Shown: positions 24,605 to 46,449 of the stretch, one piece after another
Layout: each line of letters starts with the position of its first letter
How positions within the stretch are numbered: the first letter of the stretch is position 1
Virus record (IMG/VR): IMGVR_UViG_3300035698_015907
Direction: 5' to 3' (one strand)
Length of the DNA stretch: 64,000 bases
Source: a virus
Translations under genes and position numbers: made by a program
Notes under the pieces: model-generated
Database searches by the model: none
Seen by the model: the letters and a program-made list of their open reading frames with translations, nothing else
What the model was told of the DNA's origin: nothing

Positions 24605-24697
24605 TGCGGGGTTGAGAAGTCTGGTCATCTCCCTGGTCTCATAAGCCAGTAGCGCAACGACGTTGCGTCGGGGGTTCAAATCCCCCTCCCGCTTCCA
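24605..24697 (+). tRNA. tRNA-Met(CAT) with long variable arm (possibly initiator-derived)
   Basis: loop CTCATAA; extra arm GCGCAAC/GTTGCGT; probable 1:72 mismatch. Confidence 0.75.
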
Positions 24698-27739: not shown

Positions 27740-27806
27740 TCTAATTAAATTTAATAACATATAATAAACGGTTGACAACGGATGCTAACCGTGGTATAAA
27801 TAAAGT

Positions 27807-28200
27807 CATGATCAAGTTGTTAAGTCAGCAGGTTCATAGCAGATGGTTTCAGGACCCGGGGGCAGTACCCGGCGCCTCCACCATGAGTACACAGTAACAA
27901 AATATATTTTGTTATAACAAAATATTGGTCAGGACTTCCGCGGCCCTGGTTTTATTATAGTTGTTAAACGATCTCACTCGCGATCACTCGCGATGAGATG
28001 CAGAATCTATAATAGTTATCTGTGTATTCTTGATGGGGGCGAAATAGGTTTCGACTGATGCAGTAAACTAGAAAATCGATCATCGTTTTGCACACGCCAG
28101 TGCTCGTAAGATAGATGCCAACGATAATGACATCGCTGTTGAGATGGCCCTAGCGGCTTAATCTCTCGGGGTTCGAAGGTACCTGGCAACAGAAACCTTC
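27807..28200 (+). ncRNA. ssrA: two-piece (permuted) tmRNA, alphaproteobacterial type; tag ANDNDIAVEMALAA
   Basis: acceptor piece ends GACCCGGGGGCAGTACCCGGCGCCTCCACCA (27883); coding piece starts GGGGGCGAAATAGG (28035); tag ORF 28117-28161; 3' CCTGGCAACAGAA motif; promoter TTGACA 27772 / TATAAA 27795. Confidence 0.92.
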
Positions 28201-28216
28201 ACTTAATTTTGGCTAA

Positions 28217-28340
28217 AGGATTGTTACAGCAAAATTTATGCTTGGCTTTCAACCACCTTGTCGTAGGTTCGAATCCTACCTTCTCCAATTGGGGAAGTAG
28301 CTCAGTTCGGTAGAGCGGGTAACGCAAAAAAGCAATCCTG
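28217..28340 (+). ncRNA. UUACAGCA stem RNA 3 containing a circularly permuted tRNA (YrlA-like topology)
   Basis: AGGATTGT-TACAGCAAAATTTA, then T arm GTAGG-TTCGAAT-CCTAC, acceptor CTTCTCC-AATT-GGGGAAG, D arm GCTC-AGTTCGGTA-GAGC, then GCAATCCT-G. Confidence 0.8.
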
Positions 28341-28371: not shown

Positions 28372-28448
28372 GCCCCGATAGCTCAACGGTTAGAGCAGAT
28401 GTTTCTAAAGCATTGTGTTGTGGGTTCGAATCCCACTCGGGAGCGCCA
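28372..28448 (+). tRNA. amber suppressor tRNA (anticodon CTA)
   Basis: anticodon arm GATGT-TTCTAAA-GCATT; canonical D and T arms; acceptor with a bulged A; G73 CCA. Confidence 0.85.
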
Positions 28449-42167: not shown

Positions 42168-42249
42168 GCCCATGTATCGTCACCGCCTCCTAAGCGGTCG
42201 TTAAAAGCGTAACTGGAGTATGTCGGTTCAAGTCCGGCCATGGGTACCA
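42168..42249 (+). tRNA. tRNA-Arg(CCT) lacking a canonical D arm
   Basis: 7-bp acceptor, 7-nt linker, ACCGC-CTCCTAA-GCGGT, long insert, T arm, CCA. Confidence 0.75.
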
Positions 42250-42258
42250 CAAATTAAC

Positions 42259-42335
42259 GGCCTAGTAACTCAGCTGGACAGAGTAGCTCCCTTCTAAGGA
42301 GACAGTCGAGGGTTCGAATCCTTCCTAGGTCACCA
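42259..42335 (+). tRNA. tRNA-Arg(TCT)
   Basis: cloverleaf, A20, CCA. Confidence 0.92.
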
Positions 42336-42342
42336 ATTTTAA

Positions 42343-42747
42343 ATGTGTATTATGAACCTATATTTTGAAAAAACATCGTTCTCTCATGTTACTAAAGAAG
42401 CTGATACAAGTGATGAATGGGATAGAGACGATACTAGTACTGAATGGTCTTTTGGTAGATTAGGTCTTACAAAAAGACAATATGAAGAATCATTTCCAGT
42501 CTCATTTGATGTAAAAGCTGGTGATATTGTTTTTGCAGTAGTAGCAGTATGGAGTACTGGGAATTCATTCAGTCATGATGAACAACACTGTTCTGAACTA
42601 TTTGGCATATTTAAAGATGCTAACGAAGCACTAGAATTTGAAAAAGCACTAAAAAATAAATCTGTACCTGATATATATTATCCGTGGGATGGATATTTTG
42701 AAAGTTTAGATTATATTGAACTTTTAACGAGAATTGTTGAACCGTGA
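42343..42747 (+). CDS. hypothetical protein
   Basis: WSTGNSF..PWDGYFESL. Confidence 0.65.
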   Translation: MCIMNLYFEKTSFSHVTKEADTSDEWDRDDTSTEWSFGRLGLTKRQYEESFPVSFDVKAGDIVFAVVAVWSTGNSFSHDEQHCSELFGIFKDANEALEFEKALKNKSVPDIYYPWDGYFESLDYIELLTRIVEP

Positions 42748-43468
42748 AATGGGCATTACTTTTATTTTTGGTTCCAATGTTTCCGAATGCGGAAGAAACC
42801 ACTGGTTATTCTATATTTGAAGATGAACTTGGATATAATATTACAATAGATGCTTCAAATGAAGATGCATGCAACGTCGCAAAAAATTATTTTCTTGGTA
42901 AAATTGTAGACCTTCCTACTGAGCAAGAACCAGACTGGATTGTTCTCAAATCTATATGTAAATTAGCCTTGACAGCGTAGTCTGTTTGTGTTATTATTAA
43001 CATATGAATAGGAAAGAGTTTTTCTTAGCGGTGGCTAAGATAATAGGAAATGAAGATACTTATATAGAACCAACTGACTATATAAGAAGGTGGAAAAGAA
43101 AAAGATCAAAAGAAGGTTTATATCCTGGTTTTGGAATTATTAGATGGTTCAATGAAAATTTGATCTGTGTAGTTTTAGAAGGTTCTGGTTCCAAAGTAGT
43201 TTTATCCGCAGATGCAGCTTTGTTAATTATCAAAAAGAAGATTGAAAATGAAAAGACGTAATTTTCTAACTGGAATTACATTAGTACTTGCCGCATCTGC
43301 AACACGTGCTGTTGCAGCAGAAGATGTTGCAGTAACTCATGATTATGATGAGTGGATTCATATTACTAATAATATGCCCTATGCCCTATGAGCACACTAA
43401 ACGCATCGTTGAAAATATTGATGCATTCAAATTGCATTCGAATTTCATGCTAAATACACATGCAGTAA

Positions 43469-43726
43469 TTGATGGGCGAGATATATACGACGTCTAAGAA
43501 ATTTAATGCAGTTTTAAGTAATGAATTAATACAAGATTTGAAAGCTATTCAAGGTTTTGATGCAGAAAAAGAACTAGTAGAGATCATATCTACTGAAATT
43601 TCACAGGAACTTGATGAATTTCTGAAATCTAACCATTATGTCTATGATATATCAGCAGTTAGATTTATAGATGATAGAACGTTTGCACCCTCGCTAGGAT
43701 TTATAATGAGGTATGCTGAAGTATAA
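43469..43726 (+). CDS. mini-protein resembling segments of T4-like major capsid protein
   Basis: ELIQDLKAIQGFDAEKELVEIISTEI and TFAPSLGFIMRY. Confidence 0.65.
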   Translation: MMGEIYTTSKKFNAVLSNELIQDLKAIQGFDAEKELVEIISTEISQELDEFLKSNHYVYDISAVRFIDDRTFAPSLGFIMRYAEV

Positions 43727-43732
43727 GAATTC

Positions 43733-43807
43733 GGGCCTGTAGCTCAATGGTGGAGCCGACCGCTCATAACGGTCTGGTTGTAGGTTCGAATCCTACCGGG
43801 CCCACCA
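43733..43807 (+). tRNA. tRNA-Ile2(CAT)
   Basis: GGGCCTG acceptor and GACCG-CTCATAA-CGGTC typical of the lysidine Ile tRNA. Confidence 0.8.
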
Positions 43808-43997
43808 CTTTACCCGTGTCTATTCCCAGACTCGTTAATAATGGGGAAGGTGTATAGCGGCCACACAGCATCCAGCGCTAGGTATTCTGGATAAACAAAG
43901 TGCCTAGTGCCTAGGAAAGACCTGATTGGAGACTTCGCGAAGTCTCTAATTATAGGATCAGTATTTTGGTAGATACTGATCCTATTCCACAGATTAA

Positions 43998-44088
43998 GCG
44001 CGTAAGACTTGGCAGTCAGGGATGTTTTATAAACATTTCGCTCCAGATGGGAGCCCTTGAGAGAGTTCGATCCTCTCTGCGCGCACCA
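43998..44088 (+). tRNA. tRNA-Ile(TAT) with long variable arm
   Basis: GATGT-TTTATAA-ACATT, extra arm GCTCC/GGAGC, A73 CCA. Confidence 0.75.
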
Positions 44089-44093
44089 ACATT

Positions 44094-44168
44094 GCTAGAT
44101 AGGAGTTGATAGCGGCTCGCTGGACTGTGAATCCGGAGGGGTAGGGGCAGTACCTACATCTAGTACCA
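44094..44168 (+). tRNA. tRNA-His(GTG), A73, no encoded G-1
   Basis: CTGGA-CTGTGAA-TCCGG; preceded by T; ends ACCA. Confidence 0.85.
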
Positions 44169-44787
44169 ATAGGAGGAATTTTTATGGATAAAACAGTAGG
44201 TAGATGTTCTCAATGTGGAGGCAATGTTACAGTTCCAAGTGAATGGCTTGGCATACATCCTCCGGTTCCAACTTGTCATTCTTGCGGAGCTCAAGCAGTT
44301 AGCAGATTGCCAATCATAGAAACTGAGCCAGTCGCAGAAGCTAATTCTGTAGGTTATCTTGCAGAATTTGATAAATGGACGAATAACACTCGTTCAAAAT
44401 TAGATAAGATTTATAATTTAAAAGAAAATAGCAAACCATAGGTAATTTAATTTGGAAGATGATGAATTTGGCCTTGAGATGCTAGAATCAGTATCAATAG
44501 GTTACGAGCTGGGTGAAAAGTTCATGTTTATGCTTAATGACAATCCAGCTGAAAATGTAATAGATATGCATGGCAAACCAATAAAGGAAGATTTCTTCGT
44601 TCCAGAATTAAATGACGAAGATGAAATAAAAGGTTTCAATGCTGCTATTCATGATCATCTACAAGTTGAAGATGATTTTGATTATCTGAAGTTGTTTCTT
44701 TTTATAAAGAACGCAGGTTAATATAAAATGAATATGAAAATAAAGGAGAGTTGTATGTTATGTAGATAAACTACAGGAGAACATACA

Positions 44788-45270
44788 ATGGAAAATTGGA
44801 ATGGCATAAGTGCCGTTACTGTCTGTTTCAGGTCTGGAAAGAAGATTGAATATTCTTCGTTAGAAGAAGCTGTTTCTCATTCCACATATGCTGAAATTGA
44901 GACAGAGTCCAAAGATCAGCATGATTTGATTATTCCTGCTTGGAAAATCAAAGAAGTTTCTGATAAAGTTCCGAGGATTTATCGGAGCTGGAAAAGATTT
45001 GCTAACAGGAAATTCAAGTTTCGAGACGGTCCTGTTCCTTATGTGCGCAGCAAGCGCGGTGGTAGGGCTGGAGGAGTTCATAAAGGAAAGCTGAAGCAGC
45101 AGCTTGTTTCTTCTTATCAGTATCTTGATGATATGGAAGAATCAGAAGGTTATCTCAAGCCGTGCACACGAAATGTTCGTCCGTTCTTTTTCTGGAATGA
45201 TTATTATGAAGAAGCCGGTTTGAGAAATAATAACTGGAAGCGCTTCAGGAAACAGCAATACAAAAATTAA
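44788..45270 (+). CDS. basic hypothetical protein
   Basis: FRDGPVP...NWKRFRKQQYK. Confidence 0.65.
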   Translation: MENWNGISAVTVCFRSGKKIEYSSLEEAVSHSTYAEIETESKDQHDLIIPAWKIKEVSDKVPRIYRSWKRFANRKFKFRDGPVPYVRSKRGGRAGGVHKGKLKQQLVSSYQYLDDMEESEGYLKPCTRNVRPFFFWNDYYEEAGLRNNNWKRFRKQQYKN

Positions 45271-45282
45271 TTTACTTTTTTG

Positions 45283-45459
45283 TTGACACAACAGCAAAAA
45301 CGTGGTATAAATATAAACACAATCAATAAAGGAAATACAAAGTGACTTACAGTGAACGCGATTATCGTGAGGATTATTCAATCGAGTAAAGCTCGACGCG
45401 GACATCTGTTGCCTTGTATAGGCCAATCAGGGACCGAGTCGAAAGACCGGTCCTTTTTT
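45283..45459 (+). promoter_or_regulatory. promoter, leader peptide (45342-45389, MTYSERDYREDYSIE) and intrinsic terminator: putative attenuator
   Basis: TTGACA-17-TATAAA; SD AAGGA; GTG start; hairpin over the stop codon; terminator GGACCG-AGTCGAAAGAC-CGGTCC-T6. Confidence 0.7.
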
Positions 45460-45656
45460 ATTGGGGAATTGAAATGGATAAGTACGATAATTATAACAAA
45501 AACGAACTTATCAACATCATGAAAGTTCGTATTCGAGCTGGTAACTGGACCGAAGCAAGGACTATCGGAGAGTATATCAGACAGAATTTTAGAGAGCCTG
45601 CAACCAAGGAGGGTGACACTACGTTGCTGGTTTGAAAAAATCTGTAAAAAGTTAAT

Positions 45657-45739
45657 GGGAAGGTAAAGCTAGTGGTTCTAGCAATGAGTCTGTAAAACTC
45701 ATCCTAACGGGAGTGGATCGAAACCGCACTTTCCCACCA
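45657..45739 (+). tRNA. tRNA-Tyr(GTA)
   Basis: TGAGT-CTGTAAA-ACTCA, variable arm, CCA. Confidence 0.85.
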
Positions 45740-45759
45740 CAATATGATCGGAGAATATT

Positions 45760-46062
45760 ATGTTTACGGGAGGAAAAGAAAACTTCCTTAAGAAAGATAT
45801 TTCTGATAGAGACCTTGATGTTCTATTTGGTCCTTTTGAAGAAGGCGAAAAAGAGAAAGCTAATGTTTGGCTAGAAGATGCTGCTATGCTAGAAGATATA
45901 GTAGTGATGCTTGGGAAAATGCCATCAAAAGGACAAGCTAGAAAGAATGGATGGGGAGGAGAAATCCCCAAAGGTTTCAAAGAGTGGAAAATAGGAAAAA
46001 CAAAGTTCTGGACTTGGGGTGGTTACAACAAGGAAGAATTGGTGATAGAACAGATATGCTAA
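45760..46062 (+). CDS. S4-like domain protein (TyrRS C-terminal-like)
   Basis: LEDIVVMLGKMPSKGQARKNG. Confidence 0.5.
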   Translation: MFTGGKENFLKKDISDRDLDVLFGPFEEGEKEKANVWLEDAAMLEDIVVMLGKMPSKGQARKNGWGGEIPKGFKEWKIGKTKFWTWGGYNKEELVIEQIC

Positions 46063-46140
46063 AGAGTACTCTTTAGTATGATATGCGAAACATTTGCTGT
46101 TAACAAAATGTTAGAGGTGAGAGCCCTCCTATCACCGCCA
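46041..46140 (+). tRNA. tRNA-Asn(GTT), 8/4 fold with greatly extended D region
   Basis: GGTGATAG/CTATCACC G73 CCA; loop CTGTTAA. Confidence 0.65.
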
Positions 46141-46145
46141 TTAAT

Positions 46146-46220
46146 GTTCACGTATCCGTCTGGTGACGGAAGCTGTCTGTCTAACAGCCGAGGCGGGTTC
46201 GATTCCCGTCGTGAGCGCCA
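46146..46220 (+). tRNA. tRNA-Asp(GTC)
   Basis: cloverleaf, G73 CCA. Confidence 0.9.
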
Positions 46221-46280
46221 TTAAGTTGTTGATTGCGTAAATAGGTAATCCGAGATCCTACAATCAACAACTCTTTATAT

Positions 46281-46357
46281 ACCCACGTAGCTCAGCGGAC
46301 AGAGTGCAACCCTGCGAAGGTTGAAGTCGGTAGGTTCAAATCCTCCCGTGGGTACCA
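46281..46357 (+). tRNA. tRNA-Arg(GCG)
   Basis: CAACC-CTGCGAA-GGTTG, A20, CCA. Confidence 0.88.
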
Positions 46358-46368
46358 ATACAAATAAT

Positions 46369-46449
46369 GCCCCTGTATCGCCCCTGCCTTCGAAGCAGTC
46401 GTTAAAAGCGTAATGGAGTATGCAGGTTCAAATCCTGTCAGGGGCTCCA
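46369..46449 (+). tRNA. tRNA-Arg(TCG) lacking a canonical D arm
   Basis: same architecture as 42168..42249. Confidence 0.75.

Follow-up and report, generated by a model that had tools for sequence, protein, structure and literature searches.

The window, a 64,000-nt stretch of DNA from the virus record IMGVR_UViG_3300035698_015907, belongs to a phage and contains 31 tRNA/tmRNA genes together with ligase and clamp-loader-like genes. A megablast search with its first 20 kb matched no deposited phage. Within the tRNA cluster we found two tRNA-Arg genes with a rewired core, both on the plus strand, as are all the features described below: tRNA-Arg(CCU) (tRNA 1) at 42168..42249, with 79 nt plus an encoded CCA, and tRNA-Arg(UCG) (tRNA 2) at 46369..46449, with 78 nt plus an encoded CCA. 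Both are supported by their sequence, by Rfam and by a family covariance model, R1, and tRNA 2 also by blastn. Each rewired gene has an ordinary tRNA as a same-strand neighbour, 9-11 nt away. An ordinary cloverleaf tRNA-Arg(UCU) (42259..42335; called by ARAGORN, 58.1 bits with Rfam) lies 9 nt downstream of tRNA 1, and an ordinary cloverleaf tRNA-Arg(GCG) (46281..46357; called by ARAGORN, 57.8 bits) lies 11 nt upstream of tRNA 2. Pfam domains on ten neighbouring ORFs were ligase, AAA ATPase and SPOR, with nothing tRNA-related, and a tblastn search for a co-travelling protein, with 18 window ORFs (39.0-48.2 kb) against all collected loci, returned only DNA ligase, at two loci.

The acceptor stem (7 bp), the anticodon arm (5 bp and a 7-nt loop) and the T-arm (5 bp and a 7-nt loop) have standard sizes in both genes. 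In tRNA 1, the acceptor stem GCCCAUG/CAUGGGU, with a G1.U72 pair, is followed by UAUCGUC and then by the anticodon arm (42182..42198), which consists of a 5-bp stem, all five pairs of which covary in the family, and the loop CUCCUAA (anticodon CCT, 42189-42191). Next come the 23-nt segment CGUUAAAAGCGUAACUGGAGUAU, the T-arm GUCGG-UUCAAGU-CCGGC (42222..42238; from the sequence, the Rfam alignment and covariation), A73 and CCA. In tRNA 2, the acceptor stem GCCCCUG/CAGGGGC is followed by UAUCGCC and an anticodon arm with the loop CUUCGAA (anticodon TCG, 46390-46392), in which the first stem pair is a C.U mismatch; the following insert is that of tRNA 1 less one C, and it is followed by the T-arm, U73 and CCA. 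An earlier reading, made from the sequence only, had noted that just 7 nt stand in place of the D-arm and that the two genes have a segment in common on the 3′ side of the anticodon arm. Both observations hold, the former with the exact sequences that it gave, and the common segment is 23 nt long in tRNA 1 and 22 nt in tRNA 2.

According to the covariation described below, these two segments contain the strands of a helix that spans the anticodon arm. In tRNA 1, the 5′ strand is CGU (nt 11-13, equivalent to canonical 23-25; 42178..42180) and the 3′ strand is GCG (nt 40-42, equivalent to canonical 10-12; 42207..42209). The 8-nt linker CGUUAAAA (42199..42206) runs from the anticodon stem to the 3′ strand; it is defined by sequence, and a hairpin proposed for it has no covariation. 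The relocated D-loop-like segment UAACUGGAGUAU (42210..42221) resembles A14-A15-..-G18-G19-A20, and its last U occupies the position of U48. In tRNA 2, the corresponding strands, also placed by covariation, are CGC (46379..46381) and GCG (46408..46410), and the relocated segment is UAAUGGAGUAU (46411..46421), as defined by sequence and the family alignment. A D-loop-like UGGA motif on the 3′ side of the anticodon arm had been proposed before, and AA(N)UGGA indeed follows the 3′ strand of the spanning helix.

ARAGORN called 31 genes in the window, and neither rewired tRNA is among them. With the Rfam model RF00005, tRNA 1 and tRNA 2 scored 29.9 and 31.7 bits, just above the gathering score of 29, and the ordinary tRNAs near the pair scored 43-67 bits. 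In the RF00005 alignment of both genes, 15 D-arm positions are deleted, leaving 4 nt, and 19-20 nt are inserted in the variable region; by Rfam and ARAGORN, the canonical D hairpin (10-13/22-25 closed by the D-loop, nt 9-26) is absent from both. The family model R1 describes G-U-A-U-C after the acceptor stem, the 11-13/40-42 helix around the anticodon arm, and GUAA(N)UGGAGUAU before the T-stem. It matched tRNA 1 (88.2 bits) and tRNA 2 (86.6 bits) over the full length, while the ordinary tRNAs of the window scored about 30 bits or less and the best other match in the window scored 30.3 bits. Because R1 was built with both window copies in its training set, the blastn matches serve as independent evidence. 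The same architecture was recovered by blastn in Streptomyces phage Francob (E = 2e-20; 89.5% identity to tRNA 2) and in 96 other phage records, and therefore it is not a chance arrangement. The Francob alignment also preserves the two-gene order of the ordinary tRNA-Arg(GCG) and tRNA 2. In deposited records, relatives of these genes bear the tRNAscan-type labels "pseudo" and "tRNA-OTHER", and in some phage records protein genes are annotated over the rewired tRNA.

Among deposited phage genomes, 97-224 have the same layout, as do about 90 IMG/VR contigs, with arginine anticodons throughout. The carrier phages, including Felix O1 and the phi92 and 121Q groups, infect Actinobacteria and Proteobacteria; many uncultured viruses are also among the carriers, and the 79-nt layout is kept without indels. 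When the exact motif, a strict pattern, was searched against 185,579 prokaryote species, each represented by one genome, 36 matches were obtained, 32 of which are chance matches; each of the 4 real members lies on a MAG contig of 6-41 kb. By this strict-pattern scan, phages rather than cellular chromosomes are the carriers of the family. The sequence-only reading had argued for conservation rather than decay and had set the presence of the insert elsewhere as the test; the insert was found in hundreds of phages. No description of the rewired layout was found in openly searchable papers, subscription-only papers being outside the search.

Covariation was assessed in 70 distinct family copies, aligned including the acceptor, anticodon, T and spanning helices. 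In these four helices, 94.6% of cells are paired, compared with 63.8% in shuffles, and compensatory changes are found in 15 of the 17 pairs of the acceptor, anticodon and T helices. The pairs 11-42, 12-41 and 13-40 are formed in all 70 copies, with UA/GC/AU and CG/GC/UA/UG variants. Double changes were counted in 31 copies at 12-41 and in 14 copies at 13-40, with zero unpaired cells. Such two-sided changes, never leaving a cell unpaired, are hard to explain unless nt 11-13 and 40-42 are paired. A fourth pair, 14-39, was rejected, being formed in only 17 of 70 copies. The spanning helix was recovered neither by RNAfold from single sequences nor by RNAalifold from the 70-sequence alignment; it is retained despite this disagreement because of the covariation counts. 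It is the covariation, and not the energy models, that places a short D-stem around the anticodon arm. The earlier proposal that the D-loop has moved is thus borne out, but not its corollary of an otherwise missing D-arm: by covariation, D-stem nucleotides 11-13/40-42 include a strand inside the supposed insert, and CGUUAAAA is a linker rather than a variable-arm hairpin.

The mean identity in the 70 copies is 57% in stems and 87% at unpaired core positions. The conserved unpaired core includes U8, A9 and U10 as well as C32, U34, A36 and A37 of the linker, which are invariant in the 70 copies; all of these positions are outside the search pattern. The invariance of GUAA(N)UGGAGUAU in the main alignment is partly an artefact because this motif served as the search pattern. 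Among the copies picked by their 5′ half only, the exact D-loop-like motif was found in 57 of 65. Variant copies with inspected alignments keep GG, and UGGC, without the A20-like A, occurs among them. The suggested equivalent of A20 exists in both window genes, which have UGGA; it is common in the family but not universal. In effect, the canonical block 10-21 has been moved to a place just before U48 and the T-arm.

The E. coli-type ArgRS identity set consists of C35, U36/G36, A20 and A/G73. The anticodons of the 70 copies are UCU (64), CCU (4) and UCG (2), with ACG and GCG in divergent copies. C35 is invariant in the 70 copies, and the window anticodons CCU and UCG combine it with U36 and G36, respectively. 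The discriminator 73 is G in 34 copies, A in 32, U in 3 and C in 1 (purine in 66 of 70); in the window, it is A73 in tRNA 1 and U73, which is unusual for tRNA-Arg, in tRNA 2. CCA follows the gene in 45 of 70 copies. The arginine codons of the window are AGA (50%), CGT (19%), CGA (10%), CGC (10%), AGG (7%) and CGG (5%), and the rewired CCU and UCG tRNAs form with the ordinary UCU and GCG tRNAs a non-redundant set for all six. The presence of such a split set in a novel phage argues for real decoding. An ordinary tRNA-Arg with the same anticodon was found near the rewired one in only 1 of 67 other loci. Four loci appeared to pair a rewired gene with an ordinary tRNA-Arg(UCU), but in three of them ARAGORN had mis-called the rewired gene. 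In the Felix O1 genome paper, a tRNA was expected for the over-used AGA codon but none was listed (PMC3185647); the Felix O1 tRNA cluster holds a rewired tRNA-Arg(UCU) with a score of 96 bits. It has also been reported that the ArgRS-independent parts of E. coli translation tolerate even a D-arm-less tRNA (PMC11551756).

With the layout, its conservation, the covarying helix and the exclusive arginine anticodons established by sequence comparison, both genes are probably working arginine elongator tRNAs of a phage-borne family with a rewired core, for which charging, ribosome use and the three-dimensional fold are predicted. A first alternative is a true D-arm-less tRNA-Arg of the animal mitochondrial tRNA-Ser(AGY) type, in which the 7 nt would be a connector, the insert would be either a variable-arm hairpin (GUUA/UAAC) or floppy, and nt 11-13 and 40-42 would not be paired. 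RNAfold forms a small hairpin, 33-36/43-46, in both window sequences, this hairpin is pairable in 95% of cells, and the spanning helix is never chosen by energy models. However, three of the four hairpin pairs are invariant, and the fourth has no double change, 10 unpaired cells and 9 gaps; these data give no support past the conserved letters, and the hairpin was rejected for lack of covariation. In contrast, both partners have changed in 31 of 70 copies at 12-41 and in 14 at 13-40, with no copy left unpaired at either. Moreover, the D-arm-less class lacks a D-stem and D-loop/T-loop contacts, whereas the rewired tRNAs have a 3-bp helix that covaries and a GG loop that is conserved, and we consider this alternative improbable.

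The other alternatives question whether the RNAs decode, or whether they do so in the form encoded. A tRNA-like decoy or regulator outside decoding, for example a sponge that takes up a tRNA-Arg-directed host nuclease, ArgRS or a Ro-like RNA-binding protein of the phage, would fit the non-canonical fold and the Ro-like protein genes located near tRNA clusters in the phage of the window and in Streptomyces phages. It is unlikely, however, in that a decoy has no need for four to five arginine anticodons complementing the ordinary tRNA-Arg of the same genome, for an encoded CCA with an R73 discriminator, or for being the sole candidate AGA reader in Felix O1; many carriers also have no annotated Ro-like gene near the tRNA at the loci examined. 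That the genes are decaying pseudogenes, derived from an ordinary tRNA-Arg by D-arm deletion and an insertion, may be suggested by the rejection or weak scoring of rewired genes by tRNA finders and by the labels on their relatives, but one indel-free 79-nt layout is shared by phages of Actinobacteria and Proteobacteria and uncultured viruses, and compensatory changes maintain pairing in all four helices. Such conservation and covariation effectively refute decay. Finally, the transcript could be a precursor, with an ordinary cloverleaf arising once an intron is removed or the RNA is edited or rearranged. Introns are possible in phage and bacterial tRNA genes, and ARAGORN gives some relatives shifted boundaries, as though interrupted. 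Nevertheless, removal of the 22-23 nt segment would leave no D-arm at all, and a group I intron would not fit in so short a segment; nothing like one appeared in the Rfam scan. No other part of the RNA is as conserved as this segment, which is paired with the 5′ connector, and a processed precursor is very improbable.

As working elongator tRNAs, tRNA 1 (CCU) would read AGG and tRNA 2 (UCG) would read CGA and CGG. The half made up of the acceptor stem and T-arm (7 + 5 bp, with a UUCRANY T-loop and an encoded CCA) is ordinary, as is the anticodon arm. The chain runs from U8-A9 through the strand equivalent to canonical 22-25 (U10 C11 N12 N13) and N14 (= 26) to the anticodon arm, followed by the 8-nt linker CGUUAANN, the strand equivalent to 10-13 (N40 N41 G42 U43), the D-loop-like A-A-(N)-U-G-G-A-G-U-A and a U at the U48 place before the T-stem. 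With this strand order, the 3-bp helix 11-13/40-42 closes the junction that holds the anticodon arm. The helix probably stacks on the anticodon stem, giving 5 bp, an N14/N39 layer, 3 bp and a U10/U43 layer, i.e., 10 layers, equal to the canonical 5 + 1 + 4. The relocated GG may dock on the T-loop to form the elbow, and an L shape of normal size would be kept. For charging, the host ArgRS would rely on C35, U36/G36 and the A that follows GG.

The rewired topology may be an adaptation rather than a frozen accident, although we advance this only tentatively and regard it as rather doubtful: with the backbone path through the D region altered and the L shape kept, the RNA could go unrecognized by an enzyme that depends on the canonical D-arm or elbow. 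This enzyme might be a tRNA nuclease of the host (anti-phage or toxin), might belong to RNA quality control, or might act in the phage's own host-tRNA-directed shut-off. That the fold may evade host tRNases had already been suggested in the sequence-only reading. If so, rare arginine codons would still be translated while ordinary tRNA-Arg is under attack, and the half-ordinary, half-rewired arginine set of the window would be a hedge.

If charged and used, these RNAs would represent a natural tRNA of altered connectivity working with bacterial ArgRS, EF-Tu, RNase P and ribosomes, and would reveal what in the cloverleaf is indispensable. A tRNA-Arg is unannotated or mislabelled in hundreds of phage genomes, among them those of classic phages and therapy candidates such as Felix O1 and the phi92 and 121Q groups. 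The family could also provide a scaffold for orthogonal tRNA engineering. The window itself contributes two rare isoacceptors (CCU and UCG) and a clean, complete arginine set split between ordinary and rewired tRNAs.

The rewired tRNAs share with canonical bacterial and phage tRNA-Arg (RF00005; for example, 42259-42335 in the window) the 7-bp acceptor stem, 5-bp T-stem, UUCRANY loop, encoded CCA and location in tRNA clusters, as well as the 5-bp anticodon stem, the 7-nt loop with U33 and A37, C35 with U36/G36, the GG-A motif and, mostly, R73. Unlike them, they have no D hairpin; the whole anticodon arm lies between the D-stem strands, and the D-loop, rather than capping the stem, comes after it. 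Along the chain, the order is 8-9 / 22-26 / 27-43 / linker / 10-13 / 14-21 / 48, as opposed to the canonical 8-9 / 10-25 / 26 / 27-43 / 44-48. All bacterial-type tRNAs have been called cloverleaves (PMC11551756), and PMC7609411 lists no rewired case. D-arm-less tRNAs are without the D-stem and the T-loop-docking GG and adopt a Y or boomerang fold, whereas the rewired tRNAs keep a D-stem-like helix and a GG loop, re-threaded, and would belong to bacterial cytosolic-type translation. A non-tRNA strand order is also seen in the tRNA-like module of YrlA, a bacterial Y RNA present in phages that also carry Ro-like proteins, but its acceptor end is closed and not chargeable, while the rewired genes have free normal acceptor ends, CCA and arginine anticodons. 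Circularly permuted tRNA genes are said to have been described by Soma et al. in 2007 in the red alga Cyanidioschyzon merolae. In those genes tRNA parts are likewise in a non-standard order, but processing removes the permutation and yields an ordinary cloverleaf with new ends; the rewired tRNAs have normal ends, and it is the internal order of the presumed mature RNA that is changed. Allo-tRNAs and tRNA-Sec, with 8/4 or 9/3 acceptor/T configurations (PMC5389517), are similarly natural bacterial and phage departures from the 7/5 cloverleaf that are missed by standard finders. In these RNAs, however, helix lengths are changed and cloverleaf connectivity is kept, whereas in the rewired tRNAs the lengths are standard and the connectivity is changed.

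The two rewired arginine tRNA genes of the window, tRNA-Arg(CCU) at 42168-42249 (tRNA 1) and tRNA-Arg(UCG) at 46369-46449 (tRNA 2), both on the plus strand, quite likely encode functional arginine tRNAs with a re-threaded D-arm, their fold and charging being predicted. The layout proposed for both genes in the sequence-only reading is borne out. In each, an acceptor stem of 7 bp is followed by a 7-nt stretch (UAUCGUC in tRNA 1, UAUCGCC in tRNA 2) and by an anticodon arm of 5 bp with a 7-nt loop, CUCCUAA with anticodon CCU in tRNA 1 and CUUCGAA with anticodon UCG in tRNA 2. A common segment of 23 and 22 nt, respectively, CGUUAAAAGCGUAA(C)UGGAGUAU, lies 3′ of this arm. Both genes end with a standard T-arm, a discriminator A (tRNA 1) or U (tRNA 2) and an encoded CCA. 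ARAGORN reported 31 tRNA and tmRNA genes in the window, neither rewired gene among them. With the Rfam tRNA model (threshold 29) they score 29.9 and 31.7 bits, respectively, a pass that depends on deletion of the model's 15 D-arm positions and on a variable-region insertion of 19-20 nt.

Sequence comparison identifies the rewired layout as that of a family, not an accident. A blastn search of deposited phages with the 81-nt gene matched 97 records, in 94 of which the match spans nearly the whole gene; Streptomyces phage Francob is among them (89.5% identity, E = 2e-20). The carriers include Streptomyces phages, phi92-like and 121Q-like coliphages, Salmonella jumbo phages, one Vibrio phage and Rhodococcus phage NiceHouse. 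With a Kuravirus copy as the query, 224 records were found, including Felix O1 and its relatives. In almost all records no annotation underlies the match; the exceptions are protein genes or labels like tRNA-OTHER, tRNA-Undet, tRNA-Leu or tRNA-Val. For example, the rewired gene is labelled tRNA-Leu(taa) in phage 121Q (L006:395-476) and tRNA-Val in Yaboi (L002), apparently because the finders took the linker UUAA for the anticodon loop. Searching IMG/VR for the exact motif yielded 91 stretches and, after parsing, 70 distinct sequences, both window copies counted. Their alignment has 79 columns with only one 1-nt indel; the anticodon is UCU in 64, CCU in 4 and UCG in 2, CCA follows in 45, and the discriminator is G or A in 66. 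Divergent copies outside this set carry anticodons ACG and GCG. The ACG copy, in phage NiceHouse (L004:401-475), has a linker 4 nt shorter; the record places a 46-codon 'hypothetical protein' (gene 178) over it, probably a spurious gene. Three rewired Arg tRNAs, UCU, GCG and UCG, occur together on one IMG/VR phage contig (L141:478-555, 3326-3402 and 3407-3493), and likewise on a second (L144); in the UCG copy the T-arm is preceded by some 10 additional nt, which may form an extra hairpin. A motif scan of 185,579 prokaryote species, each represented by one genome, returned 36 matches; only 4 belong to the family, and these lie on MAG contigs of 6-41 kb that are probably phage-derived.

The sequence-only reading had placed a moved D-loop-like motif 3′ of the anticodon arm and had taken the D-arm to be otherwise missing. 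The motif is there; as for the rest, covariation indicates that a D-stem is present, threaded around the anticodon arm, with nt 11-13 pairing with nt 40-42 in 70/70 sequences. Pair 11-42 is always C-G (70/70), pair 12-41 is U-A in 39, G-C in 19 and A-U in 12, and pair 13-40 is C-G in 55, G-C in 7, U-A in 7 and U-G in 1, with no unpaired case at any of the three. Pairing drops from 94.6% to 33-45% when the 3′ partners are slid by 1-3 columns in the 70-sequence alignment, and 0 of 500 shuffles reached the observed covariation score. The helix is absent from energy-model predictions (RNAfold on single sequences, RNAalifold on the 70), so its support is that of covariation, not of folding energy. 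Two other pairings were rejected: 14-39 as a fourth pair forms in only 17 of the 70 copies, and a hairpin placed by RNAfold within the insert (33-36/43-46) is made up of invariant letters with no double change. Mean pairwise identity among the 70 copies is 57% in stems and 87% at unpaired positions, the latter figure being partly an ascertainment bias since GUAA(N)UGGAGUAUG was the search pattern. A second scan therefore relied on the 5′ half alone (GUAUC, the CUUCUAA loop and CGUUAA); of the 65 stretches that it returned, 57 have the exact 3′ motif. The variant copies whose alignments were inspected read GCGGAGUAU or UGGCGUAU; thus the GG is constant in them and the next A not quite.

Could such a gene be a decoy, or one in decay? 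Either would have no reason to retain arginine-only anticodons and an invariant C35, and the family has both, its anticodons coming from both arginine codon boxes. The codon supply of the window is consistent with functional arginine tRNAs. Each rewired gene lies 9-11 nt from a same-strand ordinary tRNA-Arg reported by both ARAGORN and Rfam, Arg(UCU) (42259-42335, +) beside tRNA 1 and Arg(GCG) (46281-46357, +) beside tRNA 2. The four anticodons are non-redundant. In 37 long ORFs of the window all six Arg codons are used (AGA 50%, CGT 19%, CGA 10%, CGC 10%, AGG 7%, CGG 5%), and about 22% of Arg codons would fall to the rewired pair. Of 67 other loci, only 1 has a nearby ordinary tRNA-Arg that duplicates the anticodon of the rewired gene; in three more that seemed to, ARAGORN had mis-called the rewired gene. 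In the Felix O1 genome paper, AGA was described as over-used and its tRNA as expected, and yet absent from the 22 tRNAscan-SE calls (PMC3185647). A rewired tRNA-Arg(UCU), not in that published list, lies in the Felix O1 tRNA cluster (L145:600-678, AF320576 25951-26029), partly under the annotated 'ORF100', and scores 96 bits with the family covariance model, which was built including both window copies. Moreover, a tRNA without any D-arm is still accepted by E. coli translation (PMC11551756), so acceptance of a re-threaded one is not far-fetched.

A search with the family model finds exactly two members in the window. They are 80% identical to each other; tRNA 2 is nearer, at 87%, to UCU copies of Streptomyces phages than to its CCU sibling, so anticodons have switched within the family. 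The window and Francob share the order of an ordinary Arg(GCG) directly upstream of a rewired Arg (L003:1496-1569 for the Francob Arg(GCG)). Since megablast with the first 20 kb of the window found no DNA-level relative among deposited phages, this shared order hints at movement of tRNA cassettes between very different phages. The usual anticodon of the bacterial CGY reader is ACG; that of the CGY reader in the window (46281-46357, +) and in Francob (L003:1496-1569) is GCG. Rewiring may possibly serve to evade host tRNases, as the sequence-only reading proposed. The anticodon loops are ordinary, so protection, if any, must act via the D region or elbow. No protein co-travelling with the rewired gene was found by tblastn of 18 window ORFs against the fetched loci or by Pfam on 10 neighbouring ORFs. 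Francob has, 1.3 kb upstream of its Arg(GCG) and rewired Arg pair, a gene for a Ro-like RNA-binding protein (gene 104, L003:1-225).

Two further tRNA genes of the window look class II-like. Isoleucine tRNAs are class I as a rule. The 91-nt tRNA-Ile(UAU) called by ARAGORN at 43998-44088 (+) has a long, class II-like variable arm of 5 bp, an atypical T region and a D-loop of 4 nt; its predicted fold is stable (z = -3.2), and it is unreported by the Rfam tRNA model even at E = 10. A 93-nt tRNA with anticodon CAU (24605-24697, +), with a long variable arm of 7 bp and a Ser/Leu-like D-arm, is a second class II-like case whose amino acid normally uses class I tRNAs. An ordinary tRNA-Asp(GUC) (46146-46217, +; Rfam 43.1 bits) is unreported by ARAGORN. 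A permuted tmRNA gene of the two-piece type (27791-28252, +) shares a tRNA cluster with a tRNA whose anticodon, CUA, reads amber (28372-28444, +).

We found no description of the rewired family in the openly accessible full texts searched, among them the genome papers on Kuravirus and Felix O1. A 2020 review of non-canonical natural tRNAs mentions neither phages nor a permuted D-arm (PMC7609411), and according to a 2024 paper the known bacterial tRNAs are all cloverleaves (PMC11551756). A re-threaded functional tRNA-Arg would be relevant to both tRNA and phage biologists. Mapped by sequence onto canonical numbering, U8 and A9 would keep positions 8-9, U10 C11 N12 N13 would correspond to 22-25, N14 to 26, and nt 15-31, the anticodon arm, to 27-43. 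C32 G33 U34 U35 A36 A37 N38 N39 would form a linker replacing the variable loop, N40 N41 G42 U43 would be 10-13, and A44 A45 (N) U G G A would supply A14, R15, G18, G19 and A20. We infer that the canonical block 10-21 has shifted to a place 3′ of the variable region and 5′ of position 48. The U that directly precedes the T-stem would be U48, making an A15-U48 Levitt-type pair possible. The 11-13/40-42 helix is predicted to continue the anticodon stem as one stack, with the GG docking at the T-loop. From anticodon stem to elbow, the stack would comprise 5 bp, a 14/39 layer, 3 bp and a U10/U43 layer, 10 layers in total. The elbow-building residues, GG and the T-loop UUCRA, are kept, and the canonical stack of 5 + 1 + 4 has the same total; hence an L shape of normal size is plausible for the rewired tRNAs.
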